Counted from the stretch's first letter, positions 10,468-59,457 are shown. The stretch is DNA of 64,000 bases from a virus (IMGVR_UViG_3300013308_000002:1-64000), one strand, 5' to 3'. Notes: generated by a model from the sequence alone, not told the origin. Numbers and translations are program-made.

Positions 10468-10470
10468 TAC

Positions 10471-13726: not shown

Positions 13727-14125
13727 TTAAGTTCTGATCCAAAGGATCAATAGGACGACGAACGCGCCAAGGCCGAGTGCTTTAGGCCAAGACAGCGAGT
13801 AAAAATTCTCTTCCGGGGCCTTACGCTCCGGAGCCCAGACGATTTCGCTGGTCACGTAGGCAGTACGGTCCACGTACTCGGTCGCTAGCGCCTGGGCGTT
13901 GGCTTCGATTGGAGGCGGGATTCTTGACCAGCCTGGACGCGCTGGGTGGATCTGGATCGATGGCGGCGAATAGCCATCAGAAGCCTCCGCGCCGCGCCCG
14001 TAAATTGCGGAAATCGCGATGACGGCCAAAAGACCAATACCAGAAATCCATCGAGTTCGAACGTGCTCGCGCTTAGAACTCCGTAGGCCCGAAGGCGTAT
14101 CCACGAATTTACGTCTGTTTCGCAT
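13727..14125 (-). CDS. membrane protein (132 aa, 2 TM)
   Basis: Hydrophobic segments LLAVIAISAIY and LGLGAFVVLLILWI. Confidence 0.55.
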   Translation of the reverse strand: MRNRRKFVDTPSGLRSSKREHVRTRWISGIGLLAVIAISAIYGRGAEASDGYSPPSIQIHPARPGWSRIPPPIEANAQALATEYVDRTAYVTSEIVWAPERKAPEENFYSLSWPKALGLGAFVVLLILWIRT

Positions 14126-14865
14126 TATTCACTCTCCACGGATTTGGTGATTTCAACGGAACGACCGGCCTTTTGACCTGCCATATATGCAGCTTGGTCT
14201 TCACGGCTTTTCGGCGCGGCCACCGGCTTGACTTTATATCCTGGGTCGCCGAACTTTTCCGTCACAGCGATAGACTTCATCAGCACCAAAGAAGTTCCTG
14301 TAGCAGAGCTGGTCAAGCGGTCGCGCTCAACGGTCATCGCCGCGAGACGATCCGAAATTTCCAGGATGGCAGCCATCTTGAACTTTCCGCCGACACCAAC
14401 CGGGTATTTTGCATATCCTTTATCGGCCAAATACTCTTTGCAAAGACGGTCTACCGCCTCCAGCAAAGTCGTATACATTTGAATCGAAAGCGCCACATCA
14501 GATGCGTAGCCACGGAAGTTTACGCGCTTCCCGGCCTTCTTACGGTCCGCGTCGGTCTTTTTGAAGTCAACCGTCCCGTAGTCGTAGAAAGATTGGGTGT
14601 CGTTATATTTCGCGACGGAACAACTAAACACAGAAAGGTGTTGAGGGATGGCAGAGAAGAATCGCCCGGTAGGCGTCGACTCAAAATCTTCGTCATAGCT
14701 ATCGTTGATGTCGAGCGAGTCAAGCTGGTACTTATCCATCAGCTTGCGGGCGCGACTGGCCGCGATGGCCGCCTCGTTAGGCGAAGAGGAATCCGCGGCC
14801 ATACGCAAGAGCTTAGCGATGCGATCTTTGATCTTGATCAGGTCGGTGAAGTCTTCGGTGCTCAT
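14125..14865 (-). CDS. DUF2786-like N-terminal domain protein
   Basis: Motif AKLLRMAADSSSPNEAAIAASRARKLMDKY matches the DUF2786-type helix pair. Start at MSTEDF with SD. Confidence 0.55.
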   Translation of the reverse strand: MSTEDFTDLIKIKDRIAKLLRMAADSSSPNEAAIAASRARKLMDKYQLDSLDINDSYDEDFESTPTGRFFSAIPQHLSVFSCSVAKYNDTQSFYDYGTVDFKKTDADRKKAGKRVNFRGYASDVALSIQMYTTLLEAVDRLCKEYLADKGYAKYPVGVGGKFKMAAILEISDRLAAMTVERDRLTSSATGTSLVLMKSIAVTEKFGDPGYKVKPVAAPKSREDQAAYMAGQKAGRSVEITKSVESE

Positions 14866-14869
14866 TCTG

Positions 14870-14945
14870 TGTACCTTTCTGGTCGTTTCGTTTGGATGGC
14901 CTATACTAGCGCCATCCAATTTGGAAGTCTACAGCTATTTACGCT
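14870..14945 (-). promoter_or_regulatory. early promoter P8 (AAATAGCTGTAGACT-17-TAGTAT) with palindrome GGATGGC..GCCATCC around the -10
   Basis: Leader contains CCAAACGAAACG. Confidence 0.5.
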
Positions 14946-15395: not shown

Positions 15396-16316
15396 CTATC
15401 CGCCGAAAAAGTTCTCGAAACAGATAGGACCAATGGACCGCTCGATGGAGAGCTTGTTCGTTAACTCCCGTCCGCAGCACGAACACTCCCCGGTGCGCTT
15501 GCCGTAGGCAACTGCTGCTGCATCAGGAGTAGAACAGGCCTCTACGATGTCCGCTTCCAGCTCGTCGGATACGCCACACCCACGGTAGAACGTACCGTCG
15601 GTAATTTTGCCAAAGTATTCATCACCGTTGGAACTTTTGACGTAAAGAGAGCCGGCATTTGCGCCATGAACGGCTGCGAAGTAAATCACAATGGACGCGT
15701 CGCCTGCCAGGAGCCGCATTTTTGGATTCCGCAGTCCGTTCTTTTTGGCCTTGGTCAACGCCTTAAGGACCGCGCTGATATCGACCTTTCCCGCCAACTG
15801 GGCGTGCTCTTCACGTACGGCAGCGGCCACTTTCTTATCTGCCAACTTCTCGATGCACTTGTAAGCTGCAGCCAGTTGCCCTGGCGTTAGCGAGCCATAT
15901 TTGCGCAGAGCTTCGCGCAACGAAAGAGAGAATGAGAAGTCCTTACCGGCGCCATTCCACCACGCGGCAACTTGTGGATGTTCGGATTCGAACACTGCCA
16001 GTTTCTGGTCCGCTTTCGCCTCCTTACGCACAGATGCCTTCTCGCGAGCCAACGCACGTTCTGCCGCTGGTTTCTTGAAGAAGAGAATGCCCTTCCCTTT
16101 GCACTTCAGACATTGCTGGTGACCCAGGGAGGATGGAGTGCAATACCGACCGGAGCCGGCGCACTTCGGGCAACGTTCCTCTACCATCACACCTTTAGGC
16201 TTGGTGCTAGTGAGCTTTGACGCGTCTTCCATCGTTGCTGGAGTGCCGGCCACGACAGGTTCGCTGTCGAAATCGTCGCCGAGGTCGTCGAATCCGGAAA
16301 AGGCTGGTGCGTTCAT
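15396..16316 (-). CDS. zinc-ribbon protein (N-terminal CPKC..CLKC; C-terminal GECSCCGR...GPIC motif)
   Basis: GAGAGG SD. Two Cys clusters. Confidence 0.6.
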   Translation of the reverse strand: MNAPAFSGFDDLGDDFDSEPVVAGTPATMEDASKLTSTKPKGVMVEERCPKCAGSGRYCTPSSLGHQQCLKCKGKGILFFKKPAAERALAREKASVRKEAKADQKLAVFESEHPQVAAWWNGAGKDFSFSLSLREALRKYGSLTPGQLAAAYKCIEKLADKKVAAAVREEHAQLAGKVDISAVLKALTKAKKNGLRNPKMRLLAGDASIVIYFAAVHGANAGSLYVKSSNGDEYFGKITDGTFYRGCGVSDELEADIVEACSTPDAAAVAYGKRTGECSCCGRELTNKLSIERSIGPICFENFFGG

Positions 16317-43881: not shown

Positions 43882-44463
43882 TTACTCGCTCTTTTGAGCG
43901 CCGTCTACCAGAATTTGACGCTCGACATCCAAATTGCGATTATTGGCGTTGAATGCCGTGAAGCCATTCGGGAATCGCGCTTTGAGTTTGTCGATGTTGA
44001 CCGTTTGCACGTCTTCGAACGTCTTGCCGGCTACGCGGAGCACCGCAGCGTCATACCACAAGCCGTCGCCGACTTCTTCCAGGATGTTAGGCAGATCCAG
44101 CTCGGTGCCGTTATCGAGGGCGTTGAGGATAGCTTCCAACTTCTCACCGGCTTCGGTTGCGCCGCCGATGAGGCCGTGGATCAGACGTCGACCGTCAACC
44201 ATCTTCATGCCAGGAGGCGTCAGGGTGAAGTCGATGTTTTCTATGGTAGGACCAGAGCCAGGTTCGATTTCGCGGCCGTAGAAAAGGGCCTTTTTGATCC
44301 GGTCCAACTCTTCCAGAGCACGAACTGCTTTGTGCAGGACCAGGATGAAATGGGACTTCGCGATGTTCGCGCCGTGCCATTGGTCGGACATCGTGACGTT
44401 GGCGAGTTCGATGTAGGTTGGCGCGGCGCGACCTTCGGTTACTTCCGGGTTCAAATCAGACAC
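43882..44463 (-). CDS. MazG-like nucleoside triphosphate pyrophosphohydrolase
   Basis: Motif LEEVGDGLWY is of the EExGDxLW type. Confidence 0.5.
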   Translation of the reverse strand: MSDLNPEVTEGRAAPTYIELANVTMSDQWHGANIAKSHFILVLHKAVRALEELDRIKKALFYGREIEPGSGPTIENIDFTLTPPGMKMVDGRRLIHGLIGGATEAGEKLEAILNALDNGTELDLPNILEEVGDGLWYDAAVLRVAGKTFEDVQTVNIDKLKARFPNGFTAFNANNRNLDVERQILVDGAQKSE

Positions 44464-44514: not shown

Positions 44515-45417
44515 TTAGAAGCCTTCAGCGTCCTGCGGCTTGCTGCCGTCGCCACCGGATTGGTCGCCCTGGGCGCTCGCAGCATCGGCCTTCGCGTAAT
44601 CGGCCTTGACTTCGCCACCGACAACTTGCGTGAAGAACTCTTTGGCTTCTTTGTAGAGGTCCGCTGTTTGAACGGTGCCAGTCAGTTCGAAGTCGACGCC
44701 AGACCACGAGCCGCTGTCGTTCGAACGGCCGGACGACGTAACCTTGACGATGTTCGCGAAGGTTGGCGGCGTGCGCATGCCTTGCGGAGTTTTGACCTTT
44801 TTCTGCTGGAGAGCGGTCATCAACTTTTTGGACGACTTGATCTGGGATGAAGCCAGAGACAAGATGGCGCGGCCATACTCGCCAGTTTCGCGGTCCAGAA
44901 CGATCACGAAGTGCGAACGGGTGTCAGAGTAGTAATCGTTTTTCTTCTCGACAATCGAGCCATCTTCGTTCGGGACGTAGGCCTTCCCTTCCAGGACTTT
45001 GACCTTGTTTTCGTCTTCGCTCAGAGTCATGAACTCTTCAACGGTGAATTCGCCCTTGTAGCCGCCATCTCCTTCACGACCGCCCCACAGAATGAACGAG
45101 CGTTTGTAAGCGCACGGGATGATGTCCAGACCTGACTTGCCGTCAAAGAGCTTGCCGGTCACGGTGTTGTAGAACATGCCGGCTTTCGCGCCTTGGATGT
45201 ACTCGGCATGGTCTTCGTCGACCTTTGGAGACATCTTTTGGAGCAGTTGCAGGAACGGAATTGCAAAGGAGTCTTTATCAGCACCTTCAAAGCCCGAACC
45301 AAAGTCGCCCATATCCATGAAGCCCATATCCACTTCAGTGGACACGCCGGTGTTGGTGGCGCCTACAACCAGCTCTTTGGATTCTTCAGCGACGGCATCT
45401 TTAGCTTTGGTAGTCAT
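44515..45417 (-). CDS. hypothetical protein; possible ssDNA-binding protein
   Basis: Acidic, Gly-rich C-terminal tail ending in ...DAEGF with a terminal Phe, as in T7 gp2.5-type SSBs. Located in the replication module. Confidence 0.4.
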   Translation of the reverse strand: MTTKAKDAVAEESKELVVGATNTGVSTEVDMGFMDMGDFGSGFEGADKDSFAIPFLQLLQKMSPKVDEDHAEYIQGAKAGMFYNTVTGKLFDGKSGLDIIPCAYKRSFILWGGREGDGGYKGEFTVEEFMTLSEDENKVKVLEGKAYVPNEDGSIVEKKNDYYSDTRSHFVIVLDRETGEYGRAILSLASSQIKSSKKLMTALQQKKVKTPQGMRTPPTFANIVKVTSSGRSNDSGSWSGVDFELTGTVQTADLYKEAKEFFTQVVGGEVKADYAKADAASAQGDQSGGDGSKPQDAEGF

Positions 45418-45492
45418 GTTCTATTCTCTCTGTTAAGTTCAGTTGTTCTTCAACTGTGGGAGGATGATAAAGCGTTGATTATGAAAAGTAAA

Positions 45493-46194
45493 CTACTTTT
45501 TCTTGGGTTTTTTCGCTTTTGGTGTGGCGATTTTAGCTTCTTTGAATTCGAACACGCTGAAGCTTTCCGGAAGTGACTCGCCAGCGGCCAGACGCTCCTT
45601 AACGAATGACGTAAGTGTCATCGGGTGTACGTTGCGATCCAACGATCCCATGAAACCGGCATCTTGCAACGCCTTTTGGGCCTTCTTGGCATCTTCCATT
45701 TCGCCCTTGCCGAACTCGGCCAGAACTTTGGTTTTGATGATGCCGTCATACTCGTGCTCTTCAAGCCACTTGAATGCTTCAGGACGGTTAACTTCGCTGA
45801 TGGAAGCGTTGACCTTATCCAAAATGGATACGACCGCGCCGGACTCCATTTTGACTTCGGCCATGCCGAGTTCGGACATGATTTCAGGGAGTTGCACGCG
45901 TACGATCTTTTTGCGCGCCTCTTCCTTTTCTGCCAGCTCAACCGACAGCGTGTCGATTTCACCAGAAAGCGTCTCTGCCGACTTCACCAGCGCGGCTACA
46001 CGCTCCATCGTCGTAAGGGCGATGCCTTCGGAAAGATCCTCCAGGCCGTCCCAGTAATCGATCCCGGAACCATCGCCGAGGTGGCCTGTAACATCGCCGG
46101 CCTGGCTTTCGTCGGAGCTAGGCCCAGGGATAGCCGCGACGTTAATCGGCGCCTCTACCAAGTTACCATCCGCACCTACAACAACCTTACTCAT
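45493..46194 (-). CDS. hypothetical protein (233 aa, C-terminal KKPKKK)
   Basis: ORF with protein-like composition. Confidence 0.55.
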   Translation of the reverse strand: MSKVVVGADGNLVEAPINVAAIPGPSSDESQAGDVTGHLGDGSGIDYWDGLEDLSEGIALTTMERVAALVKSAETLSGEIDTLSVELAEKEEARKKIVRVQLPEIMSELGMAEVKMESGAVVSILDKVNASISEVNRPEAFKWLEEHEYDGIIKTKVLAEFGKGEMEDAKKAQKALQDAGFMGSLDRNVHPMTLTSFVKERLAAGESLPESFSVFEFKEAKIATPKAKKPKKK

Positions 46195-48726: not shown

Positions 48727-51687
48727 TTACCCCATATTGCTCTGGAATTTATCGATGTTGGCTTGTCGCTCCAACTCGGCTTTTGCGTCGGCTTCGTCTT
48801 TGGCAATCTTTGCCAGTGCCACTTGAGGATCAACTTCATCGACATCAATACGCTTGATGTTCTTGACGATATACATGCCTATATCCCGCAACTTCCAGCC
48901 CTTGACCAAGAACCACGAACCGTTTGGCGCGCCTTCCGCAATCGCCTTCCCCATCTTCGGGAAGTTCTCCGGACGGATACGGAAGCGCATAGGAGAGTCG
49001 CAAGAGTCATCGACCATCATCAAGTCGACGAACTGTGTCAACCCCTTCTTGACTTTACCGCCACGCTTCTTAACCCGGATGGCTTCGTTTTCGTCGGCCA
49101 AAACCTTCTTGGTGAGCTTACAGATCATCAAGCTATCGTCGCCATCCTTGGTCTCAGCCATACCTATGATTGGGCTGCCTGAAGTTACGCCGATAAGCCG
49201 AGGGTTGTCGTAGTAATGCCCCCATTTGGTGTGAGCTTCAGCCAGGTCGCTGAATTTCTTCTCGGCCTTCTCCAACTTCGCGGCTGCCTTCTGGAATGCC
49301 TCTTCGGCCTTATCCGACTCGCCGCGCTGTTCACGGAGGGTGATGAACTTAAGCGCCGTTACCGGGCCATATCCCTTGGCATTCATGATCCCGCCGACCA
49401 ACTTGCCGTCCACAGCCTGCCAGTTCAACCCGGATCGCTCCGGATCGATTGCGGTGTACGCAACACCTTCCTTATTCAACTCGCGAAGGATAGCGATTGT
49501 CTGCTCATCATCTTTGGCCGTGCGCATACACGCGGCTGCGAAGGCCAACTTGTGGTAGTGCTTTAACCAGCAAGTCCAATAGGTCACGACCGCGTACGAC
49601 ACGGAGTGGGACTTGTTGAATCCCCAAGATCCGAACGTCACCATTTCGTTCCAAATCTTTTTGGCCTGGTCTTCCGGAACGCCCTGGGAAGTCGCGCCGG
49701 CAACGAAGTCAGCGCCCATCACGTTGAAATACTCTTCGCCCTTACGGCCAGACATCGCCTTACGAACGGCAGAGGTCTTGACCCAGTCAAACAGGCCGAT
49801 TTCCTTTACCACGGACATGATCTGTTCTTGATAGAGGAATACGCCGTAAGTGTCCTTGAGATACTTTTCAAGTTGCGGCACGTCGTAAGTGATTTCCTCG
49901 TCGCCACGAGCACGAGCGATGTACTTCTGGGCCATACCGGAAGCCAACGGACCTGGCCGCGCTAGCGCCGTCAAGTTGTCGATTTTTGAGAAGCTGTCGA
50001 CAGTAACCGAACGCGCCACGGATCGAACGGCATCACCTTCAAACTGAAAGATGCCACTTACTTTATCACTATTGATGATTTCGAATACTGCCGGATCATC
50101 AAACTTCAAACCGTAAAGTTCATCGGCAGTCACTACACCGGTGTCTTCGATAATGCCGAGGGTTCGAAGTCCCAAGGCATCGATCTTCAGCAGGTTGAGA
50201 TATTCAGAGTCAGGCTTATCGATCTGCGCAACGCCTTCCGCGTTAATGGTGCAGAAGTCGGTGATTGGCTCGTTACATACCAGGATGGCCGCTGCGTGAA
50301 CGCCGGTGTGACTAGGGTGGATTTCGAGGTCGCCCATGCAGTCCGCTGCAGCCGGGTATTTCTCTTTGAAGTTAGCGCCTGGAGTGGTCCCTTCAAACGT
50401 ATCCTGCAGGCCCTTTCCGTAACGGGCGTCACCGGATGAATACTCAATCAAGGCGTTCTTGACGGAGAAAGTCTCATGCTGCGGAATGAGGAACTTCTTA
50501 CCGACCTGGGCCATCACCGACGCGGCCTTCAACGTGTTGATGTTACCCATCTTCGATACGTGGGCGATTCCGTACTTGGCTTGCATATATTCGAACACCA
50601 TATAACGCTTGGTGTCGTTGAAGTCGATATCAATATCCGGAAGGTCGGCGCGGCTGATGTCGATAAAGCGCTGGAAAAGAAGGTCAAACGGAATTGGGTC
50701 AACCTCGGTGATATCGAGGACGTAACAGATCAACGATCCAGCCGCAGATCCACGCGCTGGACCTACCAGCATATGGCGCTTTGCGTAGGCTACCAAGTCC
50801 GCTACCACCAAGAAGTAACTGTCAAACTCCTTGGCCTGAATCTGGCTAATCTCCTCGATGAACCGCGCTTCGTATTCCTCTGTCCATTCGGCGATGTGAC
50901 CACGGTCAAGACGGCTTTGCTGGCCGATACGAGCAAGCGCCACCAGATCGCCTTCGACCTTGATGAGAGGGGCTTTGTTGAGTTGGATGCCGGCCAGCTC
51001 GTCTTCGATGACGTAGGCGTTCTTCCAGGCGCTTTCGAACTCGTCGCGAGTCATGACGTGCTTGAGCGTATCGAACATCGTCCAGCACTCTTCGATAGTC
51101 CTCACGCCCTGCGAGTCGCGAACTTCCCAGGCATAGGCGTAGTTCTTGAACTTCGCCGAAGGCATATCGTTGAAGCCGGTCAGAACCATCGGCTTGCCAG
51201 TTTCACGGTGGCGCTTAACACCAGCAGCGGCCAGCAGGAACGATGATGGGTTGATATCGATATAGTCGAATGCTTCGTCCGGTAGAACGTCCAGCGCGCC
51301 ACCTGAGAAGCGCACGCAGCCTTCTACGGTCCGGAGGTCGCCGGGCGTAAGTCCTTTGTTCTGGACGCAGCGCGAGGTGACGGTGTAGAACTTGCGAAGG
51401 TCTTTGGCCAGAATCCAAGCCTTTGGAGTGAACTTGGACGGCTCGCCATCTTCGTCAAAAGAACGAATCGGAATTTCCATACCAAACATTGTCTGGATTC
51501 CGTGTTTAGCGGCCTCCTTCTCAAACTTAACATGACCCCAAGTTCCGGAGTCGACGATGGCCGCTGATTTGGCGCCGACCTCCTTGAGCCGTTCGAACAC
51601 TTCCGGCATACGTCCATAAACGTCCCGGTAAGTAAAACCAGTACGCACGCGAAGTTGCGGGAATTCTCTCATATCAGCTGAATGCAT
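48727..51687 (-). CDS. dnaE: DNA polymerase III alpha subunit (DnaE-type, PHP domain)
   Basis: N-terminal PHP-like region; GSAAGSLICYVLDITEVDP matches the DnaE GSxAGSLV.Y.LGIT.VDP motif. 986 aa. Confidence 0.9.
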   Translation of the reverse strand: MHSADMREFPQLRVRTGFTYRDVYGRMPEVFERLKEVGAKSAAIVDSGTWGHVKFEKEAAKHGIQTMFGMEIPIRSFDEDGEPSKFTPKAWILAKDLRKFYTVTSRCVQNKGLTPGDLRTVEGCVRFSGGALDVLPDEAFDYIDINPSSFLLAAAGVKRHRETGKPMVLTGFNDMPSAKFKNYAYAWEVRDSQGVRTIEECWTMFDTLKHVMTRDEFESAWKNAYVIEDELAGIQLNKAPLIKVEGDLVALARIGQQSRLDRGHIAEWTEEYEARFIEEISQIQAKEFDSYFLVVADLVAYAKRHMLVGPARGSAAGSLICYVLDITEVDPIPFDLLFQRFIDISRADLPDIDIDFNDTKRYMVFEYMQAKYGIAHVSKMGNINTLKAASVMAQVGKKFLIPQHETFSVKNALIEYSSGDARYGKGLQDTFEGTTPGANFKEKYPAAADCMGDLEIHPSHTGVHAAAILVCNEPITDFCTINAEGVAQIDKPDSEYLNLLKIDALGLRTLGIIEDTGVVTADELYGLKFDDPAVFEIINSDKVSGIFQFEGDAVRSVARSVTVDSFSKIDNLTALARPGPLASGMAQKYIARARGDEEITYDVPQLEKYLKDTYGVFLYQEQIMSVVKEIGLFDWVKTSAVRKAMSGRKGEEYFNVMGADFVAGATSQGVPEDQAKKIWNEMVTFGSWGFNKSHSVSYAVVTYWTCWLKHYHKLAFAAACMRTAKDDEQTIAILRELNKEGVAYTAIDPERSGLNWQAVDGKLVGGIMNAKGYGPVTALKFITLREQRGESDKAEEAFQKAAAKLEKAEKKFSDLAEAHTKWGHYYDNPRLIGVTSGSPIIGMAETKDGDDSLMICKLTKKVLADENEAIRVKKRGGKVKKGLTQFVDLMMVDDSCDSPMRFRIRPENFPKMGKAIAEGAPNGSWFLVKGWKLRDIGMYIVKNIKRIDVDEVDPQVALAKIAKDEADAKAELERQANIDKFQSNMG

Positions 51688-52237
51688 CGTACACCCCCAA
51701 CTTGCCGCAAAGTTCGTGAAGTAAAGTGATGTCGTCCATGGCCCTGTGCTTCTGGACGTAAGTCCCGCAGTACAGTTCGTATAGGTCTTGGAGTCTCATC
51801 CGTCGACCGAACTGGTGCATGGTTTGCTCTACCGTACAGCACGGGATAGAAGGGAAGCCAGACGCGGCGAAATCTCTTTTCGCACGTATGAAGTCGTATT
51901 CGAGCAGCGACGAGTCGAATGACAAGTTGTGAGCGACTGCCACATCAACGCCCAACCAAAACGTTTGAAGGCCATCGATGAAGGCGCCGAACGAAGGTTT
52001 GTCATCGAGGTGCTCGTTTTTCAGACCGGTGATCTTGGTGATGATTTCTTCCAGAGCGATTCCCGGATTGCAAAGGAACTCGTGGGAATCAAGGATCTCA
52101 ACGCCATCCGTAATGATGCCGGCAAATTCGATGATTCGCGGCTGCAGACCGATACTGGCCTCTGGGTGGACGGTGAGTCCTGTCGTCTCGGTGTCGAACA
52201 CCAAGAATTTTTTACGGTAAGGAATAAAGACGGCCAT
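51674..52237 (-). CDS. DEDDh 3'-5' exonuclease (DnaQ-like proofreader)
   Basis: Exo I motif VFDTETTGL. Directly downstream of dnaE. Confidence 0.85.
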   Translation of the reverse strand: MAVFIPYRKKFLVFDTETTGLTVHPEASIGLQPRIIEFAGIITDGVEILDSHEFLCNPGIALEEIITKITGLKNEHLDDKPSFGAFIDGLQTFWLGVDVAVAHNLSFDSSLLEYDFIRAKRDFAASGFPSIPCCTVEQTMHQFGRRMRLQDLYELYCGTYVQKHRAMDDITLLHELCGKLGVYDAFS

Positions 52238-52304: not shown

Positions 52305-52823
52305 TTACAACGGCAACCCGTCAACGCCCAAGCGCACGATGAACTTGAGGTCGACACCGATAATGTCGCGAGTATCAAAGATCACGTAGTTGTACCGGCG
52401 GGAGTCTGCGATGTACTTGTTGGTGTGACTTTGGGTGACGACTTCCTGAGCAACGGCGATGTCTCGCTCGCGGAAGAAAACGCGGTATTGAGAAAGTTCA
52501 GCGGAAGTACAGTGCATGCCGATGTGGCTGACGGAGTTTCGAGCGGACTCGTTATCCTGCATCCAGTTTGGACCGTCCGTGTAGTCGAGGACTTCCAACT
52601 CCAACGGCTTGTCAGCGTGATGGTCGCCGCCGTTGCCGGCCTGGTAGTTGAAGTGTAACTCGGCAGTGCTCTCGCCGTCCTCACCGAACACTTCACCCTT
52701 TGCAATCACACGGTCGCTTACCCATTGGTCCAGACCGAGGGCTGACAGCAACTCGATTGCGCGTGGCGTGTCCGCGACTACGACGGCGATTTGTTCGATC
52801 TGGAACTTGCGTACTTGAGACAT
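52305..52823 (-). CDS. hypothetical protein (172 aa), possibly VOC/glyoxalase-like fold
   Basis: Weak resemblance only. Confidence 0.45.
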   Translation of the reverse strand: MSQVRKFQIEQIAVVVADTPRAIELLSALGLDQWVSDRVIAKGEVFGEDGESTAELHFNYQAGNGGDHHADKPLELEVLDYTDGPNWMQDNESARNSVSHIGMHCTSAELSQYRVFFRERDIAVAQEVVTQSHTNKYIADSRRYNYVIFDTRDIIGVDLKFIVRLGVDGLPL

Positions 52824-52883
52824 GATTTACTTCCTGAATATTGAGAGCGAATTATTGACTAATTTCAGTCGGTTAGCAACAAC

Positions 52884-53552
52884 TTATTTGCCGAATGGGA
52901 TGTCTGTTCCACCCATGTATTTCCAGGCGCCGGACTCCAGGATGTGAGCGATGAACTCGCCAATTGCTGCCGGCGGCGTTTCGAGGCCGTGGACAAGCGA
53001 CTTGCTTTGATATTCCTTCGCATATTCAGCCGTCCAGCCGCGAGTTTTGATGACGTTGGCCTCGATGTCCTTGGACATTTCAGTCCCTTCCAGTTTGTTC
53101 GGTGAGATGGAGAAGACGGTGAGGCCGTGAGTCTTCGACAGCTCGTGGGACATCTGCTTGGTAATCATCAAAGCTGCTGCCTTCGACGCGTTGTAAGCCA
53201 GACTGGAGGTCATCGGCATATGCGCGGCGTTCGATACGATGTTGATGACGAAACCTTTACAGAGCGTCAACGGCGCCAGCAAGGCTTGGGTCATGTAGAC
53301 CATCGAGAAGGCGTTGACCGCCATGACGTGGGGAAGGCTGCCGGCGATATCCGGGAACCACTCGTTATGGTTGATACCGGCGCAGTTGATCAGGCCGTCC
53401 AGCTGGCTGATGTCAGAGAGCCATTCAGAAGGGTTGGCGACGTCATGACCGGCCTCGATATCGTACGTGATTACGTCGTGACCGACCGCCAGCAGAGCCG
53501 TCGCGATTGCCAAGCCCAAGCCGTGCGACGAACCAGTTACCAAAATACGCAT
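52884..53552 (-). CDS. short-chain dehydrogenase/reductase (SDR)
   Basis: TGSSHGLG Rossmann motif and YNASK catalytic motif. Confidence 0.85.
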   Translation of the reverse strand: MRILVTGSSHGLGLAIATALLAVGHDVITYDIEAGHDVANPSEWLSDISQLDGLINCAGINHNEWFPDIAGSLPHVMAVNAFSMVYMTQALLAPLTLCKGFVINIVSNAAHMPMTSSLAYNASKAAALMITKQMSHELSKTHGLTVFSISPNKLEGTEMSKDIEANVIKTRGWTAEYAKEYQSKSLVHGLETPPAAIGEFIAHILESGAWKYMGGTDIPFGK

Positions 53553-53561
53553 GATGAATCC

Positions 53562-54431
53562 TTAATTGACTTGAATGTTGTGGGTATTGACGAGGCGTTC
53601 GCACATGGCGGAGTAAATCGCATCATCATGAATGGAGTCTTCATGTTTCAGGCCGCTCTTGATGAAGCGGGTAAGCTTGACGATTTTCAACTCGAAAAGA
53701 TGCCACATATGGAAGTCTTCCGGAGTCTTCAGAGTGACGCCGTTCGGGAACATCACCGCCATTAGAGCGCCGACCAATACCGCGTTATCCTTGTACAGCG
53801 CATTACGCTCTTTGAACGTTCTACCCATATCCAGAAGTATATCGCCAGCGTCACGCTCGCGGTTGGGCGGAGTTTCAAATGTTGACTTCTGGGTCGGTCC
53901 GTCTTCGGCGAACTCGACATGGCTCATCGGCGCCGGTGGCGGGATAAGCCCACGCTCATCCAGCACCTGTGCGGCGATACCAAGCTCGCGATACATGTCA
54001 ACGATGTCTTGGCGGTCGTCGTATGCCGCGACTACTTTGACCCACGGGGCCATCAGCTTGACTGCGACCGACCTTTTGAGTGATACGGTTTCTTTGTCGC
54101 TGCCGGTAGGGCGCATATGGATGGTGAAAGGAATTTTGTCTTTCGACTTTCGAAAAAGCACCCGTTGCAGCGCTGTGATGGACTCGGCCATATAAGAGAC
54201 TGGGCGAGAAGTATTGAATACGATATTATCGCCCGCATCGTGGTGCTTGAAGATCAAGCCAAGACTTTCCGAAAACGGCAAGTCATCAAACAGCATGTCG
54301 TGATAGAGTTTGAACTCCGACTGATTTTTTGTACCTTTCGTCGGCAGAAGGTGACGTCGCTTACGGTCGTCAAACACGCAACCGTCCAGATCAAAAATTG
54401 CGATTTTGGCACATAGCGATTCGTCAGCCAT
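53562..54431 (-). CDS. HAD-superfamily phosphatase with additional C-terminal alpha-helical domain
   Basis: Motif I IAIFDLDGCVF. The start overlaps the ThyX stop (TAATG). Confidence 0.65.
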   Translation of the reverse strand: MADESLCAKIAIFDLDGCVFDDRKRRHLLPTKGTKNQSEFKLYHDMLFDDLPFSESLGLIFKHHDAGDNIVFNTSRPVSYMAESITALQRVLFRKSKDKIPFTIHMRPTGSDKETVSLKRSVAVKLMAPWVKVVAAYDDRQDIVDMYRELGIAAQVLDERGLIPPPAPMSHVEFAEDGPTQKSTFETPPNRERDAGDILLDMGRTFKERNALYKDNAVLVGALMAVMFPNGVTLKTPEDFHMWHLFELKIVKLTRFIKSGLKHEDSIHDDAIYSAMCERLVNTHNIQVN

Positions 54432-55261
54432 TACATCGATTTCCCGTTGTGAGCGATTGGGTTTGCTTCGGCTTTTGCCGATGACCAGAATACTTTGCGG
54501 AGTTCTTCTTTCTCTTTGGAAAGGTCCATCCACGAGCGGAAGAACGGGCATTGGTAGATTGGCTGGACAGGATGGATCTCGCGGACTCCCACCACCTTAC
54601 CGCCCCACCGAGGGAAAGCGCATTGGCCGGTCGATACGCACGCAACCTGCAAGAGCGAATCGGTCCAAGGGTGTTGCTCTAACACCAGCTCACGGATGAT
54701 CCGGAAGGCATCCTGGTACTCGCCCTGGGTACGGGCGCAAAGGCGGTTCTTGGCCATATCGCTGAGCGTACGGAGGTTGAACTTGGCTTGGATCTTGGTT
54801 ACCATATTCGACGGGCAAACGGCACGGGCATCCTGAAGTTCGGCACCAGCCGCTAGCAGGCCTTTGTAATGGGCGTCGGCGTCGGCCATTGCGTCCATCC
54901 AGAGCATTCCGAGTGCGGTCGGTTCGCCGTCTGGATCATCGGTCCTGATGAACGCTTCAGGCATAACCGTAGCGGACATTACGTCGATCTCAAGAGCGCG
55001 GCTAGTCTCCTGCTGATACGCGCCAGTCCGTGTACGAACCAGCTGGTGCGTGAAGTTTTTGCTTACGCCTTCGATTTCGAAGATGTAATCGACAAACTCG
55101 AAAGGCGACTTGATGGTATCAAGCATATACGCCCAATGGTCGCGTTTTTCTTCTTCCGTCATGGTAGAAGGATCTTGGCCGCGCATACGAGCGGACTTGG
55201 TGCCAAGGAGAAGTTCCAAGGCGTTTTGCGTATGGCTGATGAGTTTGATTTTCATGGTCAA
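54431..55261 (-). CDS. thyX: ThyX-like flavin-dependent thymidylate synthase homolog (RHR motif altered to RTR)
   Basis: SPFEFVDYIFEIEGVSKNFTHQLVRTRTGAYQQETSR aligns with ThyX [32 protein letters not shown]. Confidence 0.7.
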   Translation of the reverse strand: MTMKIKLISHTQNALELLLGTKSARMRGQDPSTMTEEEKRDHWAYMLDTIKSPFEFVDYIFEIEGVSKNFTHQLVRTRTGAYQQETSRALEIDVMSATVMPEAFIRTDDPDGEPTALGMLWMDAMADADAHYKGLLAAGAELQDARAVCPSNMVTKIQAKFNLRTLSDMAKNRLCARTQGEYQDAFRIIRELVLEQHPWTDSLLQVACVSTGQCAFPRWGGKVVGVREIHPVQPIYQCPFFRSWMDLSKEKEELRKVFWSSAKAEANPIAHNGKSM

Positions 55262-55476
55262 ATATTCCGGATGATCGAAAAGCTTTTCTGGATGATCGAA
55301 ACCAAATCGATCAAGTCGTCACGGTCGGCCGATACGCCGTGCGTTTGAACAAGGCATACCACTTCATCGCGGATGGCGACCTTTTCCAACTCAGCCTCAT
55401 GGGCCTCGGCAATCATGAGCGTCGGATGGACGCTCATGTCGGAGCAACGAAAGGCTGTTACGGACTCAATTGCCAT
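55258..55476 (-). CDS. hypothetical small protein
   Basis: Internal ATG of ORF 55258..55677. Confidence 0.4.
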   Translation of the reverse strand: MAIESVTAFRCSDMSVHPTLMIAEAHEAELEKVAIRDEVVCLVQTHGVSADRDDLIDLVSIIQKSFSIIRNI

Positions 55477-55477
55477 A

Positions 55478-55693
55478 CTACACCCGTTGGACGCTATCAG
55501 CATCGGTACGTGGACGGTAAATTTCGAACGACAGGGCATTTGGATAAGCTGATTCGGCCATGCGCAACGCAGCATCAAGAGACGTGCCATCGGCGAATCG
55601 CTCCACCTCAGTTTCCTGATCGATGTACGCTGACTCACCAGTCGCCGGGATGATGATACTACGTTTGAGTACCGCAAGGATAGCGATAGTCAC
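55478..55693 (-). CDS. hypothetical small protein (71 aa)
   Basis: Small ORF between 55258..55476 and 55690..55884. Confidence 0.45.
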   Translation of the reverse strand: MTIAILAVLKRSIIIPATGESAYIDQETEVERFADGTSLDAALRMAESAYPNALSFEIYRPRTDADSVQRV

Positions 55694-55884
55694 GACGGCA
55701 CATCCAAAAGCTCTTGAAGCGCGTCAACAACGTCCTCGACCGTTTCCAGGTGAGAATCCATGGCCAGCGCGGCAACTGCCACGATGCCAGCGCGGAGTTT
55801 GGCCAGGGCGATAGCATTGGCGTTTGCGCGGATTACGGTACTATCCAGAGCTTCTTGCAATTCATCTTTGGTCTTGCGGGACAT
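55690..55884 (-). CDS. hypothetical small protein (64 aa)
   Basis: A GGGCCTTCGGGCCC hairpin lies upstream. Confidence 0.45.
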   Translation of the reverse strand: MSRKTKDELQEALDSTVIRANANAIALAKLRAGIVAVAALAMDSHLETVEDVVDALQELLDVPS

Positions 55885-55932
55885 GGTTATTCTCCCAGGG
55901 AGGATGGGCCCGAAGGCCCGTGGATGGTTGGA

Positions 55933-56115
55933 TTAAATCCCAAGCTCACGTTCGGCGCGAAGCTTGATGCTGGCCCAGCGATTGGCAGCAGGCACCCAAA
56001 CACCGTCCTTTTTGGTTTCGCAGCGCCAAACGCCCTTGTCGTTGATTGCGCGGCTGTTAGCGTGCTGGTAGACCACTTGGGTGCCGTTGTTAGTGCTGTA
56101 GATTTGTGCGCTCAT
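55933..56115 (-). CDS. hypothetical small protein (60 aa)
   Basis: Preceded by promoter P11. Confidence 0.45.
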   Translation of the reverse strand: MSAQIYSTNNGTQVVYQHANSRAINDKGVWRCETKKDGVWVPAANRWASIKLRAERELGI

Positions 56116-56119
56116 CTGT

Positions 56120-56210
56120 CATTCTCCAGAGGGTTTTGCGTTTCGATGAGCCGATTCTACGCTTGGGACATTTCACCGTCAAGCACTATTTCAATGTAAA
56201 TTGAAATTAT
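56120..56210 (-). promoter_or_regulatory. early promoter P11 (AAATAGTGCTTGACGG-17-TAGAAT, leader GGCTCATCGAAACGCAAAAC) preceded by palindrome ATTTCAAT-TTAC-ATTGAAAT
   Basis: Same family as P4 and P7 although located 45 kb away. Confidence 0.5.
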
Positions 56211-57160
56211 TTCAGCGCGATGAGTCGTCGCGAATATGCCGATGCGCTGATCAGGCGGTCGATGGTCTTGATGTCGGACACTACGTCATCCAGCAAGATG
56301 TTGCGCCACGTAGCAAAGCGCCCGAGGGAAAACAAGTTATGTGCGTGGGTGAGCTCGAACATGATTGCTTCGCGGTCGGCCTTTGGCATGTCGACCATCT
56401 TGCCGAAGTTCTGGATGTTGAATGAAAAGGAAGCGATATCCAAATCTTTCACCTCCAGACCGAACGAATACAGCGCAACGTTCAAGTCGTCCAGGTTCAA
56501 ATCGGAAGAGTTCGCGCCATTACCGTCACACAGAGCTTCGATAATCAAGTTGTCGCCGGTAATGGAAGCCCGGAAAATATTCAAGTCCGGATCTGGGAAG
56601 TACACAGTTTGGTACACGTCGGAAGGCGCGGCCAACTTGTAACGACTAACTTGGATGGAAGACTTGTCGAATTTAAATGGAACGGCAAAAGTCGACTCCA
56701 TTCCGGTGGCCGCGAGGTTGACCGACATTGGCGCAGTCGAGACTATGGCGCAGTCACTTTTGATGGACGCGCCAATTTCGACGCCCCAGCTGATACGGGC
56801 TTGGTGTTTAGACACAAGCTGCTGGTAGAAGTCATCCGGCGCAATATACCGCTCGCAAGCGTCCAGGTTGGCGATAGAACGCGCTGATACGCCACCAGAG
56901 ACTTTCAGGCTGTAGAGGTTCTGGTCACGAATGGAAGCGTACGACATCACTCGGTCGTTGCTGTAGACCGCCTTCTGGACGCGGACCTTTTTGAATGGGA
57001 TGCCGGTCAGCTCGGCGACGGCGGTGGAGCGGAAGCGGAGAAGTGCGGTGTGGTTCTCTGTGGGACCTGGCATGCGGTCGATAACGCGAGCATCTTTGAA
57101 ATGACTCGCGGCCAGAAGCCCAGCGAGGCCAGCGCCGACAATAACAATATTTTGAGACAT
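56207..57160 (-). CDS. FAD/NAD(P)-binding oxidoreductase
   Basis: N-terminal dinucleotide-binding motif IVIVGAGLAGLLAA from the internal ATG MSQNIV. Confidence 0.7.
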   Translation of the reverse strand: MSQNIVIVGAGLAGLLAASHFKDARVIDRMPGPTENHTALLRFRSTAVAELTGIPFKKVRVQKAVYSNDRVMSYASIRDQNLYSLKVSGGVSARSIANLDACERYIAPDDFYQQLVSKHQARISWGVEIGASIKSDCAIVSTAPMSVNLAATGMESTFAVPFKFDKSSIQVSRYKLAAPSDVYQTVYFPDPDLNIFRASITGDNLIIEALCDGNGANSSDLNLDDLNVALYSFGLEVKDLDIASFSFNIQNFGKMVDMPKADREAIMFELTHAHNLFSLGRFATWRNILLDDVVSDIKTIDRLISASAYSRRLIALK

Positions 57161-57219
57161 GATACACCTATATATCAAGTTATCGGCAGAATTGCCGTTC
57201 ACACTAAACTGGAGGCGAA

Positions 57220-57246
57220 GAAAAGCCCCAACTAAGGGGCTTTTCA
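57220..57246 (-). terminator. rho-independent (bidirectional) terminator
   Basis: GAAAAGCCCCAACTAAGGGGCTTTTCAG. Confidence 0.65.
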
Positions 57247-57263: not shown

Positions 57264-58157
57264 TTACTCGCCTTGTTCGTTGTGCTCGCCAGCTTCCGGC
57301 GATTCGTCACCAGCCGGTGCATCTGGTTGGTCGACCGGCGCTTGCTCTTCAACCGATTGGAAGTCCAGGTGGCCCATTTCTTCCAGTTTTGCCAGGTAGC
57401 TGCGGACTGGGGTGCCGTACAGCAAGCCCTTCACGCTTTCGCCGAACTCAGCGATGGAAACCGGCACGCCGACTTCGATGTTGTCGAGGATGTGCTGGTA
57501 AATCTTGCCGCGAATCGACAGGGCTTGCGGAGTCGACAGGCCTTTGCCGGTGAAGATGAAGTGGGTGGCACGAGCGCGACGGCCACCGTTCAGCTTGGTT
57601 TCGGCCTTGCGATCAGCGATGGCTTTGGCACGGGCTTCGGCTTCATCTTTGCGCGCTTGCTTGTTGGCTTCGACTTCGGCCTTGCGGGCTTCGATGCCTT
57701 CAGCACGTTCCAGTTCACGCTGGGCTTTACGGTCGGCCTTTTCCTGCAGCTTCAAAGCAGCATTGGCTTCTTTTTCGGCCGCGCCCTGGGTGGCTTTCAG
57801 CGCTTTGGCAGCTTCACGCTCAGCAGCTTTTTCAGCCTTGGCGGTTTCGCGCTCGGCAGCTTTCAGAGCGTTCTTTTCGGCGCGCTCGGCTTCTTTCTTC
57901 GCGTTTTCTTCTTCGCGGCCAGCTTCCTTCAGCGCGTTTGCTTCGTTGCGCTTGGTTTCGCGTTCAAGGTTCTTGGCTTCGCGCTCGGCTGCTTTTGCAG
58001 CGGCCTTGGTTTCGCGGTCCAGTTGCTTTTGAGCCAGTTCAGCGGCTTTCTGTTCGGCTTTTTGTTCTTTGGTCAGGTCGTTCACGGTAAAACTCCAAAT
58101 TTCGTTAAGTAAGTAATTAGATCTGGGCTTCTGCCCGGTGAAAGAAGTATGCAACAA
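57264..58157 (-). CDS. coiled-coil repeat protein (AERExAKxLK-type repeats) with C-terminal globular, possibly winged-helix domain
   Basis: About 170 aa of K/E/A/R repeats encoded by DNA-level repeats. The true start may be GTG near 58085. Confidence 0.6.
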   Translation of the reverse strand: MLHTSFTGQKPRSNYLLNEIWSFTVNDLTKEQKAEQKAAELAQKQLDRETKAAAKAAEREAKNLERETKRNEANALKEAGREEENAKKEAERAEKNALKAAERETAKAEKAAEREAAKALKATQGAAEKEANAALKLQEKADRKAQRELERAEGIEARKAEVEANKQARKDEAEARAKAIADRKAETKLNGGRRARATHFIFTGKGLSTPQALSIRGKIYQHILDNIEVGVPVSIAEFGESVKGLLYGTPVRSYLAKLEEMGHLDFQSVEEQAPVDQPDAPAGDESPEAGEHNEQGE

Positions 58158-58248: not shown

Positions 58249-59457
58249 CTACTTGTATCGGCGTATCGACAGATATGTAATGGCACGAGTAATGCCGGTA
58301 TACATTAGTTGGTGATACGGCACTCCACGTAGCAACTCTTCCAGAATCAAAACTAGCGGCCATTCCGAACCCTGGGACTTGTGGATGGTCAAGCAATAAC
58401 CAAAGTCCCATCCGCCAACTTTCTTAACGGCCTCTTCGCGTATGTCTTGGTATTCAGAGAAAGATGCCGGGTTGAACTTAGCATAACGCTCAACTCCATC
58501 GGTCAACGATTTGACGACAACTAACATCATGCCATTTGGATCGTCCTTATCTTGGTCGTCTTCTGGAATGGCTTCATAACGAATGACGATGCCTTGCTCG
58601 CCGTTCATCGTTTGATAGCCGTGCTGGTTGAACATGCACACGATCTTCTCGCCAACTTGCGGGAACGTACCAGAGAATCCCAGGGCCTCACGGGCGCGCT
58701 TGTTGTAGTGGTGTCTCGTTGAGTTGTACGAGCAAAGGACAACGGCGTCTTCACCGAGGAACGACAGCAACTCTTCGTCGGTGATGGTGCCGTCTTTAAC
58801 GGTTACGTCGTCATAGATTTTTGTTGGAAGGCGTTTGCCTTGGCGCACAAACATGGAGGCGCGAACGATATTGCCGGCGTTGCGCTCGATTTGGTCCAAC
58901 AGGACATCGGTAGTGCCTTCGACGAACCAAGCCTGGGCCTTGACCGGAGGGATCTGGCCGGTATCGCCTAGCGCCAGCAGAGGGATGCGGTGCTCAAGGA
59001 TTTTGTCGCGGTCATACACGCCGACCATAGATGATTCATCCATAGCAACGAGTCGCGGCCGTTCATCCAAGTCGCCCTTGGCAACAAAGATAGGCTCGCC
59101 ATCTTCGTCTTCGCCACGGACGTTATAGATGAACTGGTGAAGCGTCTTCGCGTTCTTACAGCCTTTCTGGCGGAGTCGGCTTGCGGCCTTGCCGGTCGGA
59201 GCAATAAATTGACACCAGTCCATCCCACAGCAAAGCTCGGCGATGATGCGAGCAATCGTCGTCTTGCCAGTCCCGGCATAACCGGCCAGCGAGAATACTT
59301 GGCGCCGGTGCTTACGGTCCTGCCAACCTTTGTACCAATGCACGGCCTTGTTGATGGCCGCAACTTGCTGATCGTTAATGGTCGGGAATTCGAAGCGCTC
59401 GGCCAAATACTCGGCAGTATACGTTTCGTAAGCTACTGCGTGTTCCATGTAGGGCAT
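58249..59457 (-). CDS. Dda/RecD-like superfamily 1 DNA helicase
   Basis: Walker A GYAGTGKTT; Walker B AMDESSMV. Confidence 0.85.
   Translation of the reverse strand: MPYMEHAVAYETYTAEYLAERFEFPTINDQQVAAINKAVHWYKGWQDRKHRRQVFSLAGYAGTGKTTIARIIAELCCGMDWCQFIAPTGKAASRLRQKGCKNAKTLHQFIYNVRGEDEDGEPIFVAKGDLDERPRLVAMDESSMVGVYDRDKILEHRIPLLALGDTGQIPPVKAQAWFVEGTTDVLLDQIERNAGNIVRASMFVRQGKRLPTKIYDDVTVKDGTITDEELLSFLGEDAVVLCSYNSTRHHYNKRAREALGFSGTFPQVGEKIVCMFNQHGYQTMNGEQGIVIRYEAIPEDDQDKDDPNGMMLVVVKSLTDGVERYAKFNPASFSEYQDIREEAVKKVGGWDFGYCLTIHKSQGSEWPLVLILEELLRGVPYHQLMYTGITRAITYLSIRRYK

Follow-up and report, generated by a model that had tools for sequence, protein, structure and literature searches.

All phage pyrimidine hypermodifications characterised so far begin with a ThyA-fold enzyme (PMC8989533, PMC13326640). 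The flavin-dependent ThyX family, which carries the signature RHR(X)7S (Myllykallio 2002, as quoted in PMC2826268), includes PolB, a paralogue from polyoxin biosynthesis in bacterial secondary metabolism that still methylates UMP/dUMP (PMC5954106). Recently, the virion DNA of the Pbunaviruses F8 and 14-1 was reported to contain thymidine derivatives with masses of 362 and 390 Da, which are sugar or polyol derivatives replacing about one-quarter of T in a TG context; the authors found no known modification genes and named no biosynthetic genes (bioRxiv 10.1101/2025.03.31.646159). Wifceviruses, in turn, show restriction resistance without a known mechanism (BASEL).

Here we describe a gene module in a 64,000-nucleotide stretch of viral DNA (IMGVR_UViG_3300013308_000002:1-64000; hereafter referred to as the window), the core of which comprises a flavoprotein (phrog_4828) resembling UDP-galactopyranose mutase (UGM), a ThyX-like flavoprotein with an altered active site and a HAD phosphatase with a DUF6378 domain (Table 1). 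On balance, and with some reserve, we favour the reading that this module synthesises, wholly or in part, a thymidine replacement for phage DNA that is substituted at C5 and bears a sugar or polyol, comparable to the Pbunavirus base.

Table 1 Features of the module and of the surrounding part of the window.
Feature	Position	Strand	Remark
MazG-like nucleotide pyrophosphohydrolase	43882..44463	-	PF03819, 23.5 bits, cut-off 22
PolIII-alpha-type polymerase	48727-51687	-	replication gene; Pfam/phrog and ORF data
DnaQ-like exonuclease	51674-52237	-	replication gene; Pfam/phrog and ORF data
VOC-like (glyoxalase-fold-like) protein	52305..52823	-	facultative tailoring slot
Classical SDR	52884..53552	-	facultative tailoring slot
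PNKP-type HAD phosphatase with C-terminal DUF6378 domain	53562..54434	-	third gene of core trio
ThyX-like flavoprotein, RTR motif, four invariant Cys	54431..55255	-	second gene of core trio
Mini-ORF, 72 aa	55258..55476	-	ATG-started portion of 139-aa ORF
Mini-ORF, 71 aa	55478..55693	-	GTG start overlaps stop of preceding mini-ORF
Mini-ORF, 64 aa	55690..55884	-	ORF call
Mini-ORF, 60 aa	55933..56115	-	ORF call; best sigma70-like promoter match lies before
UGM-like FAD flavoprotein, phrog_4828	56207..57163	-	first gene of core trio
Terminator-like hairpin, GCCCC-TTAGTT-GGGGC then T-run	57218..57244	-	read off the sequence; not listed by the scanner

An ORF check of the window recovered every gene of the one-orientation cluster that the sequence-only reading had described, including its four mini-ORFs, as well as the separate MazG-like gene that it had placed outside the cluster; the MazG-like protein is only a possible partner in pool control. 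Of the mini-ORFs, the 60-aa frame has no family match and is not conserved across related loci, the 64-aa frame has weak homologues only in two related loci (L004 and L015) and the 72-aa frame has a homologue in one (L002). The early-type promoter that the same reading had assigned to the FAD gene was not borne out: promoter-like matches in the scan number 5, as against 4.1 ± 1.7 in shuffled sequences, and the best of them, TTGACG-17-TAGAAT (56182-56154), falls downstream of the flavoprotein gene and ahead of the mini-ORFs. The sole signal upstream of this gene is the hairpin, located between phrog_4765 and the flavoprotein gene. Beyond the module, a Pfam survey of 30 non-structural window ORFs (excluding the smallest) revealed no further metabolic enzymes and no ThyA, glycosyltransferase or kinase, and no ThyA-family match was found among 46 window ORFs scanned against Pfam, leaving the ThyX-fold protein as the sole thymidylate-synthase-like gene. 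Among the ORFs scanned there was likewise no kinase or transferase domain, and neither a 5-HMUDK-like or dNMP kinase nor a recognisable glycosyltransferase came to light; many small ORFs of the window belong to no family. A search of 50,697 phage records revealed no close relative of the window phage at the DNA level.

The ThyX-like protein starts at the ATG at 55255 and contains the motif QLVRTRTGAYQQETSRA, exactly as quoted earlier, with RTR in place of RHR. It matches Pfam Thy1 (PF02511; 2.8e-27, 96 bits, cut-off 24.8), whereas its score of 72.9 bits against the NCBIfam equivalog TIGR02170 lies below the cut-off of 87.9. Its AF2 model (pLDDT 86) resembles Thermotoga maritima ThyX (TM0449, PDB 1O26) with a TM score of 0.75. 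A residue census of 76 distinct ThyX-like proteins encoded beside a phrog_4828 homologue revealed that the position of the RHR histidine (H79) is occupied by Thr in 65, Ser in 10, Asn in one and His in none, and that S88 is represented by Thr in 54, Ser in 15 and Ala in 7. H53 is replaced by Ile and Y91 by Val, Ala, Thr or Ile in 76 of 76, and H178→R is common to them all; by contrast, the FAD/dUMP-binding residues Q75, R78, R80, R90, R147, R165 and R174 are unchanged throughout. The proposed inspection of the active site, by model and census, thus gave a divided answer, in which the FAD and dUMP residues are intact and the folate-site and catalytic residues H53 and Y91 are replaced.

An RHR-type ThyX was found beside the flavoprotein in none of 78 cases. 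RTR for RHR is a hallmark of the family and not peculiar to the window phage, and H53→I, Y91→A/V and H178→R are as diagnostic as RTR itself. As a lone diagnostic change, RTR can be set aside, because close representatives of the four-cysteine type retain RHR and nevertheless share the other substitutions. The four cysteines (C175, C208, C214 and C238) are invariant within the clade of the window protein; as a module-wide trait they were rejected, because no more than 41 of the 78 module ThyX-like proteins have them. The contacts of the RHR histidine are limited to the phosphate and ribityl moieties of FAD, and RTR alone is a conservative swap at this position, where the side chain forms a hydrogen bond to the FAD phosphate. 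H53 stacks on the folate and is the residue altered in the mutant structures PDB 4GTF and 4KAR.

These observations bear on the most durable alternative, which we nevertheless regard as unlikely: that the ThyX-like protein is a divergent but functional FDTS boosting dTMP, and that its neighbours are unrelated replication passengers or morons. Its fold, its Thy1 score far over the cut-off, its full set of FAD/dUMP-binding arginines and its annotation as thymidylate synthase in databases agree with this explanation, as does its location among replication genes, a frequent site of thymidylate synthases. Moreover, Thr, Ser or Asn could still hydrogen-bond the FAD phosphate contacted by the RHR histidine, and because H79→T is conservative in this respect, ordinary ThyX activity may persist. 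However, a score under the equivalog cut-off and the replacement of H53, Y91 and H178 in 76 of 76 proteins are not what such an enzyme would predict.

The flavoprotein had been described as an FAD/NAD(P)-binding oxidoreductase, but it is not a generic enzyme of this kind. Its nearest fold is that of UGM, and it has a UGM-type FAD fold, despite an identity of 11–18%. It falls into no Pfam family, GLF included, and no NCBIfam family, and a PDB sequence search returned nothing. The protein consists of one FAD domain, of the UGM/PPO type, and this fold rules out a two-domain NAD(P)H:flavin reductase. UGM is a sugar-handling flavoenzyme that uses the flavin N5 as a nucleophile.

The HAD protein starts at the ATG at 54434, abutting the stop of the ThyX-like gene. 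Its HAD domain matches HAD_PNKP (PF25109; about 6e-11 to 9e-11, 42.5–43 bits, cut-off 27.6) and contains the DxD nucleophile motif in FDLDGCVFDD, and the whole protein matches phrog_4889 (3.5e-60). The extra helical domain that the earlier reading had noted at its C terminus is conserved, and is free-standing in two related loci (L017 and L019). Although the window protein has no direct match to PF19905, some 20 among the 120 nearest relatives of this domain carry a precomputed PF19905 assignment, and on their strength we judge that it probably belongs to PF19905 (DUF6378); a PDB sequence search with this domain found no homologue.

Next to the trio, the SDR matches adh_short (PF00106; 7e-27, 94.6 bits, cut-off 26.6) and has both motifs attributed to it, TGSSHGLG (TGxxxGxG) and YNASK (YxxxK), as expected of a classical SDR. 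The VOC assignment of its neighbour is less firm, as the window protein matches Glyoxalase_4 only weakly (E = 7.6e-4, 20.2 bits, under the 27-bit cut-off) and has no PDB sequence homologue, whereas 12 of 16 members of its family match Glyoxalase_4 (best E = 1.1e-5). We also considered the SDR as a FolM/PTR1-like alternative dihydrofolate reductase working for the thymidylate synthase. Since ThyX chemistry yields THF and not DHF, this assignment was rejected; furthermore, TGxxxGxG is not a FolM-type motif and the matches of the protein are generic.

Neighbourhood searches revealed that the trio is tightly linked. Seeded with the flavoprotein, the search found the ThyX-like gene in 68 of 68 loci and the HAD gene in 66; seeded with distant ThyX-like proteins, it found the flavoprotein in 56 of 58 loci and the HAD gene in 57 of 57. 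Joint presence is therefore 96–100% from either seed gene and across several phage lineages. More than 400 IMG/VR contigs, belonging to several phage lineages, contain the module, which is near-absent from cellular genomes. In most lineages it is flanked by the PolIII-alpha and DnaQ-like exonuclease genes, and part of the co-occurrence could stem from joint inheritance as a single replication cassette. A 207-kb Rhizobium jumbo phage likewise has the three genes in a cluster; there, PolIIIα is not adjacent, and dUTPase and RNR genes lie nearby. In Rhizobium phage RHph_Y65, the labels 'phosphoheptose isomerase' and 'polysaccharide deacetylase' have no Pfam support and belong to homologues of the HAD-DUF6378 protein and the flavoprotein. 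Strict two-way linkage of this kind would be pointless for dTMP synthesis, and it extends to a jumbo phage already equipped with dUTPase and RNR.

The genes adjoining the trio are more variable. The SDR gene is present in 46 of 68 loci in the flavoprotein search and 42 of 57 in the ThyX-like search, nearly always alongside the VOC-like gene (45 of 68 and 38 of 57, respectively), and the two form a facultative pair in a variable slot. Elsewhere, this slot holds a SAM methyltransferase, a radical-SAM enzyme, a sulfotransferase, or MazG or DUF4406 instead of SDR and VOC. An adjoining slot of variable tailoring enzymes also argues against simple dTMP supply. A housekeeping role in the nucleotide pool or at DNA ends, with the HAD protein healing ends or dephosphorylating dNMPs, the flavoprotein reducing or regenerating the flavin of the ThyX-like enzyme, and the SDR and VOC proteins providing auxiliary redox or detoxification functions, would suit the PNKP 3′-phosphatase as top Pfam match of the HAD domain, the location of the cluster between helicase and polymerase, the MazG gene elsewhere in the window and the dispensability of SDR and VOC in many lineages, but we consider it improbable, because the single-FAD fold without a second NAD(P)H domain is not of the flavin reductase type, canonical ThyX works without a partner reductase, and it would leave unexplained why H53, Y91 and H178 are lost without exception and why the slot contains methyltransferase, radical-SAM and sulfotransferase genes.

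The Pbunaviruses encode homologues of the flavoprotein (45% identity), of the ThyX-like protein (65%, with the identical RTR motif) and of the HAD protein, arranged as in the window; they differ in lacking the SDR and VOC genes, although their DNA is modified, and the window phage represents a separate, uncultured lineage with no DNA match. That T is modified in relatives lacking other candidate genes is a further point against a role confined to dTMP, and by analogy the module is so far the strongest candidate for the pathway underlying the sugar-bearing thymine of Pbunaviruses. The complete five-gene module is present in Wifcevirus Bas98.

Several points weigh against the favoured reading, among them the lack of the SDR and VOC genes in modified Pbunaviruses and of a recognisable kinase or glycosyltransferase among the scanned ORFs. 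The relatives do not behave uniformly, as F8 DNA is cut by EcoRI, whereas Bas98 is not restricted by it. F8 and 14-1 contain differing bases, although identity between the two phages reaches 97% for the flavoprotein and 94% for the ThyX-like protein. A comparison of the two genomes was uninformative as to a gene setting the side chain, as the differences are dispersed; divergence is greatest in ORF70 (57%), which encodes a coiled-coil/Zn-ribbon protein that is absent from the window. The TG specificity in these relatives points to an enzyme that works on DNA and reads its sequence, and no TG-specific enzyme of this kind was identified here.

Collectively, the non-canonical-pyrimidine pathway proposed in the sequence-only reading becomes markedly more plausible, because Pbunavirus relatives with the same genes have hypermodified thymidine, because the active site of the ThyX-like protein is altered family-wide and because this protein is linked near-invariantly to the UGM-like flavoprotein and HAD-DUF6378, with a tailoring slot adjoining. 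What does not carry over is the weight placed on the SDR and VOC proteins, which are facultative, and on RTR as a unique feature. If the module indeed serves to replace thymidine, the ThyX-like enzyme would keep FAD and dUMP binding while having lost the folate-stacking His and the catalytic Tyr, and we propose that dUMP therefore receives a C5 substituent beyond the plain folate-derived methyl group. The product may be 5-hydroxymethyl-dUMP, with water capturing the exocyclic methylene, or may bear a carbon chain derived from a sugar. The UGM-like flavoprotein would provide or rearrange the sugar unit, and the HAD phosphatase would dephosphorylate the side chain, the nucleotide or the DNA. In phages having both, the SDR and VOC proteins might reduce or isomerise the side chain, and the neighbouring PolIIIα and exonuclease would replicate using the modified product.

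A bolder version, which we regard as a long shot, is that the ThyX-like protein and the UGM-like flavoprotein jointly perform a new flavin-dependent C5 alkylation or C-glycosylation of dUMP. The carbon of a sugar or sugar-phosphate, held as a flavin-N5 iminium in the manner of UGM, would replace the folate methylene, the HAD protein would remove the sugar phosphate and the slot enzymes would diversify the side chain. Mass arithmetic gives 362 (C14H22N2O9) for dU (228) plus pentose (150) minus H2O plus 2H, and 390 (C15H22N2O10) for dU (228) plus hexose (180) minus H2O; such chemistry would fit because these values match the nucleosides reported for the relatives.

If the thymidine-replacement reading is correct, a ThyX-fold entry enzyme together with a UGM-like flavoprotein would constitute a second, independent route to phage pyrimidine hypermodification. 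It would supply candidate genes for thymidine hypermodification in Pbunaviruses, which are among the phages most used in Pseudomonas phage therapy, and might account for the restriction resistance of Wifceviruses. Given the number of IMG/VR contigs with the module, a hidden class of modified-DNA phages may be common, which would affect sequencing, cloning, phage engineering and sensitivity to defences such as END nucleases.

The ThyX-like protein of the window shares with canonical ThyX (TM0449) the fold, the Thy1 domain and the FAD/dUMP-binding residues, but has RTR(X)7T where the canonical signature reads RHR(X)7S, and carries the replacements H53→I, Y91→A and H178→R. It also has a C-terminal extension with four cysteines invariant in its clade, and is constantly paired with the UGM-like flavoprotein. 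PolB, likened here by description and not by sequence, provides a precedent for the recruitment of a ThyX-family enzyme to make a non-standard C5-modified pyrimidine nucleotide. The phages M6, ViI, ΦW-14, SP10 and PaMx11 (PMC8989533) resemble the window phage in combining, within a phage gene cluster, a head enzyme of the thymidylate-synthase type with variable tailoring enzymes, and the outcome resembles that in the relatives of the window phage, in that some of the T gives way to a bulky C5 derivative and restriction is blocked. These phages use a ThyA-fold dUMP hydroxymethylase, the DNA kinase 5-HMUDK and PLP, radical-SAM or aGPT-Pplase enzymes (PMC8989533), whereas the window module has the unrelated ThyX fold at its head and a core of two flavoproteins and a HAD phosphatase.

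The phage is an uncultured myophage, distant kin of Pbunavirus, and the window covers most of its genome. A search of 50,697 phage records gave no nucleotide match, and the ThyX-like protein shares 65% identity with the homologue of some 290 Pseudomonas Pbunavirus isolates. The cluster of putative nucleotide and redox genes described in the sequence-only reading lies on the minus strand, flanked by a Dda/RecD helicase gene and by those for a DnaQ-like exonuclease and PolIIIα; the description stands, with three start codons corrected (table). The ThyX-like motif quoted there, QLVRTRTGAYQQETSRA, and the SDR and HAD motifs are correct, and the separate MazG gene was borne out. The SDR is a generic classical one. 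The VOC-like protein is sub-threshold in the window, but the same assignment recurs in 12 of 16 relatives. An early-type promoter had been ascribed to the flavoprotein gene, and we detected none above chance; the best σ70-like match (56182–56154) lies ahead of the mini-ORFs, and a terminator-like hairpin precedes the flavoprotein gene.

Selected features of the window and of related loci (L numbers denote loci fetched from relatives; L108 is F8 and L109 is 14-1)
Feature	Locus	Position	Strand	Remarks
Dda/RecD helicase	Window	58249–59457		
phrog_4765 protein	Window	57264–58157	minus	
phrog_4828 GxGxxG protein (flavoprotein)	Window	56207–57163	minus	Start ATG 57163
Four mini-ORFs	Window	Between flavoprotein and ThyX-like genes	minus	
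ThyX-like	Window	54431–55255	minus	Start ATG 55255
HAD_PNKP phosphatase with C-terminal helical domain	Window	53562–54434	minus	Start ATG 54434
Classical SDR	Window	52884–53552	minus	
Weakly VOC-like protein	Window	52305–52823	minus	
DnaQ-like exonuclease and PolIIIα	Window	48727–52237	minus	
Pam3-type gene pair	Window	44515–46194	minus	gp34-like, 8e-85; gp33-like DUF7307, 2e-34
MazG	Window	43882–44463	minus	
Zn-ribbon/DUF6011 protein	Window	15396–16316	minus	Early region
DUF2786/DUF7168 protein	Window	14125–14919	minus	Early region
SPFH/Band-7 protein	Window	8648–9493	minus	Early region; PF01145, 8.7e-23
Radical-SAM/SPASM enzyme	L020	9478–10497		In slot
SAM methyltransferase	L102	8402–8974		In slot
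DUF4406 protein	L007	11706–12038		In slot
Sulfotransferase-family protein	L187 (Vibrio phage vB_ValP_VA-RY-3)	7369–8124		In slot; PF13469, 30.4 bits
phrog_4828 flavoprotein homologue	L186 (RHph_Y65)	4458–5420		36% identity; RefSeq 'polysaccharide deacetylase'
HAD-DUF6378 protein	L186 (RHph_Y65)	9751–10473		RefSeq 'phosphoheptose isomerase'
ORF70	L108	1860–3056		Coiled-coil/Zn-ribbon
ORF70	L109	1769–3073		Coiled-coil/Zn-ribbon

When 30 more non-structural ORFs of the window were surveyed with Pfam, they showed replication and packaging functions only (including ligase, SNF2 helicase, RepB primase, Pam3 gp33/34-like proteins, terminase and SPFH), so that the cluster and MazG are the sole recognisable metabolic enzymes. 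The two neighbouring genes matching Pfam families named for cyanophage Pam3 are placed between MazG and the SNF2-type helicase. In the phrog_4765 protein, a conserved C-terminal domain comes after a long Lys/Glu/Ala-rich repeat region that matches TolA weakly; the protein is kept in Pbuna-like lineages only, directly upstream of the flavoprotein gene.

Linkage was assessed in about 180 loci fetched from IMG/VR, using as starting points the window ThyX-like protein, a flavoprotein profile and a profile built from Cys-less ThyX-like proteins that are distant (about 40% identical). Flavoprotein loci with downstream room contained a ThyX-like gene in 68 of 68 cases, HAD/DUF6378 in 66, SDR in 46 and VOC-like in 45. 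Conversely, the distant ThyX profile recovered the flavoprotein in 56 of 58 loci with upstream room and, in the 57 with downstream room, HAD/DUF6378 in all, SDR in 42 and VOC in 38. Pbuna-type upstream genes occur in only about a third of loci, many of which lie on 40–58-kb contigs. Phages in culture that carry it range from Pbunavirus, Wifcevirus and Carpasinavirus, through myophages of Serratia, Pantoea, Aeromonas, Luteibacter and Xylella and 40-kb phages of Ralstonia, Cronobacter and Vibrio, to Rhizobium jumbo phages of 190–207 kb. In one of the latter, RHph_Y65, the flavoprotein, ThyX-like and HAD genes lie within 6 kb beside dUTPase and RNR with no adjoining PolIIIα, and the linkage is therefore not merely one inherited replication cassette. 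The deposited RefSeq names of two of these RHph_Y65 genes (table) have no Pfam support.

The slot that holds the SDR and VOC-like genes in the window varies across loci: it is empty in Pbunaviruses and elsewhere holds a SAM methyltransferase, a radical-SAM/SPASM enzyme, MazG or DUF4406. A sulfotransferase-family protein occupies it in a Vibrio phage, hinting at a sulfated variant of the module product. Judged from gene content, a core trio with interchangeable putative tailoring enzymes has the layout of a biosynthetic cluster. The C-terminal helical domain of the HAD protein is strongly conserved and free-standing in some loci; we judge it from its relatives to be DUF6378 (PF19905), and a PDB sequence search found no solved-structure homologue.

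The ThyX-like protein has a ThyX fold (AF2 model, pLDDT 86; TM 0.75 to T. maritima ThyX) and scores 72.9, below the NCBIfam equivalog cut-off of 87.9. Residues were placed on T. maritima numbering through a HMMER alignment and counted in 76 distinct homologues adjoining a phrog_4828 gene. The FAD/dUMP-binding residues Q75, R78, R80, R90, R147, R165 and R174 are retained in all 76. H53, which is mutated in 4GTF and 4KAR, two structures of folate complexes (by their PDB titles), is replaced by I in all 76, H59 by F in 75, Y91 by V, A, T or I in all and H178 by R in all; position 79 is T in 65, S in 10 and N in 1. The last change, the RTR for RHR highlighted in the sequence-only reading, is present but not peculiar to this phage: most of the best 150 cluster representatives (from 1.8 billion proteins) carry RTR, RSR, RNR or RQR, and seven carry RHR. 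None of 78 distinct ThyX-like proteins adjoining a flavoprotein has RHR. Since the RHR residues contact the FAD phosphates and ribityl through hydrogen bonds (PMC6514825), H→T is the least drastic of the replacements. A separate group of long (350–570 aa) multidomain ThyX-like proteins, including the cluster representatives P0187, P0190, P0228 and P0230, has RQR for RHR (QMVRQRTAVYAQESLRFAV) and also carries RLCTQAQFE.

The window clade has four extra invariant cysteines in the ThyX-like alignment (C175, C208, C214 and C238), a set found in only 41 of the 78 module proteins. They lie in or after the last core helix, with C175 in RLC and C208-x5-C214 in CxxxGxCAFPR, and suggest a Zn or Fe–S site unknown in canonical ThyX.

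A plain thymidylate synthase serving ordinary dTMP synthesis would fit the fold and the retained FAD/dUMP-binding residues; the substitutions at H53, Y91 and H178 speak against it, and we regard this reading as unlikely. A housekeeping role for the module in nucleotide pools or repair is more doubtful still. We lean modestly towards a modification pathway, in which a ThyX-fold enzyme diverted from folate-dependent methylation would be coupled to a sugar-handling flavoprotein.

Relatives carry modified DNA. In the Pbunavirus phages F8 and 14-1, LC–MS detected new nucleosides of 362 and 390 Da, respectively, which stand in for about a quarter of thymidines and were interpreted as sugar-alcohol and cyclised aldopentose thymidine derivatives; TG is common to all sites given for the Pbunavirus relatives, a family without known modification genes (Yee et al., bioRxiv 10.1101/2025.03.31.646159). 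We found no later paper naming the genes responsible. Both masses fit either ethers of 5-hmdU or a dU whose sugar-derived carbon chain is attached directly at C5; this arithmetic, our own, does not discriminate between mechanisms. The E. coli Wifcevirus Bas98 carries the full five-gene module (Xanthomonas phage FoX7 is another cultured carrier with SDR and VOC); Bas98 is restricted by EcoP1_I (82 sites) and not by EcoCFT_II (93) or EcoRI (36) (PMC11990801 S2 Table). As EcoRI cuts F8 DNA, modification or protection in relatives with SDR and VOC may differ from that in Pbunavirus.

Against the modification reading, the bases of F8 and 14-1 differ while their flavoproteins are 97% and their ThyX-like proteins 94% identical; moreover, no kinase or glycosyltransferase was found in the window ORFs surveyed by Pfam, and our analysis identified nothing that reads TG. 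The most divergent gene of the 19-kb replication segment between these phages is ORF70 (57% identical; neighbours 94–100%), which has no homologue in the window.

The proposal of a modified pyrimidine is considerably strengthened by comparative genomics and recent literature on relatives, yet only partly supported. The most economical reading is that the module would be the missing biosynthetic machinery, or part of it, for sugar-bearing thymidine replacements, which makes its members candidates for the genes behind the thymidine modification of therapeutic phages in wide use. Every pyrimidine hypermodification characterised so far begins with a ThyA-fold enzyme (PMC8989533, PMC13326640); if the modification reading is correct, phage thymidine hypermodification would here have a ThyX-fold entry enzyme instead.
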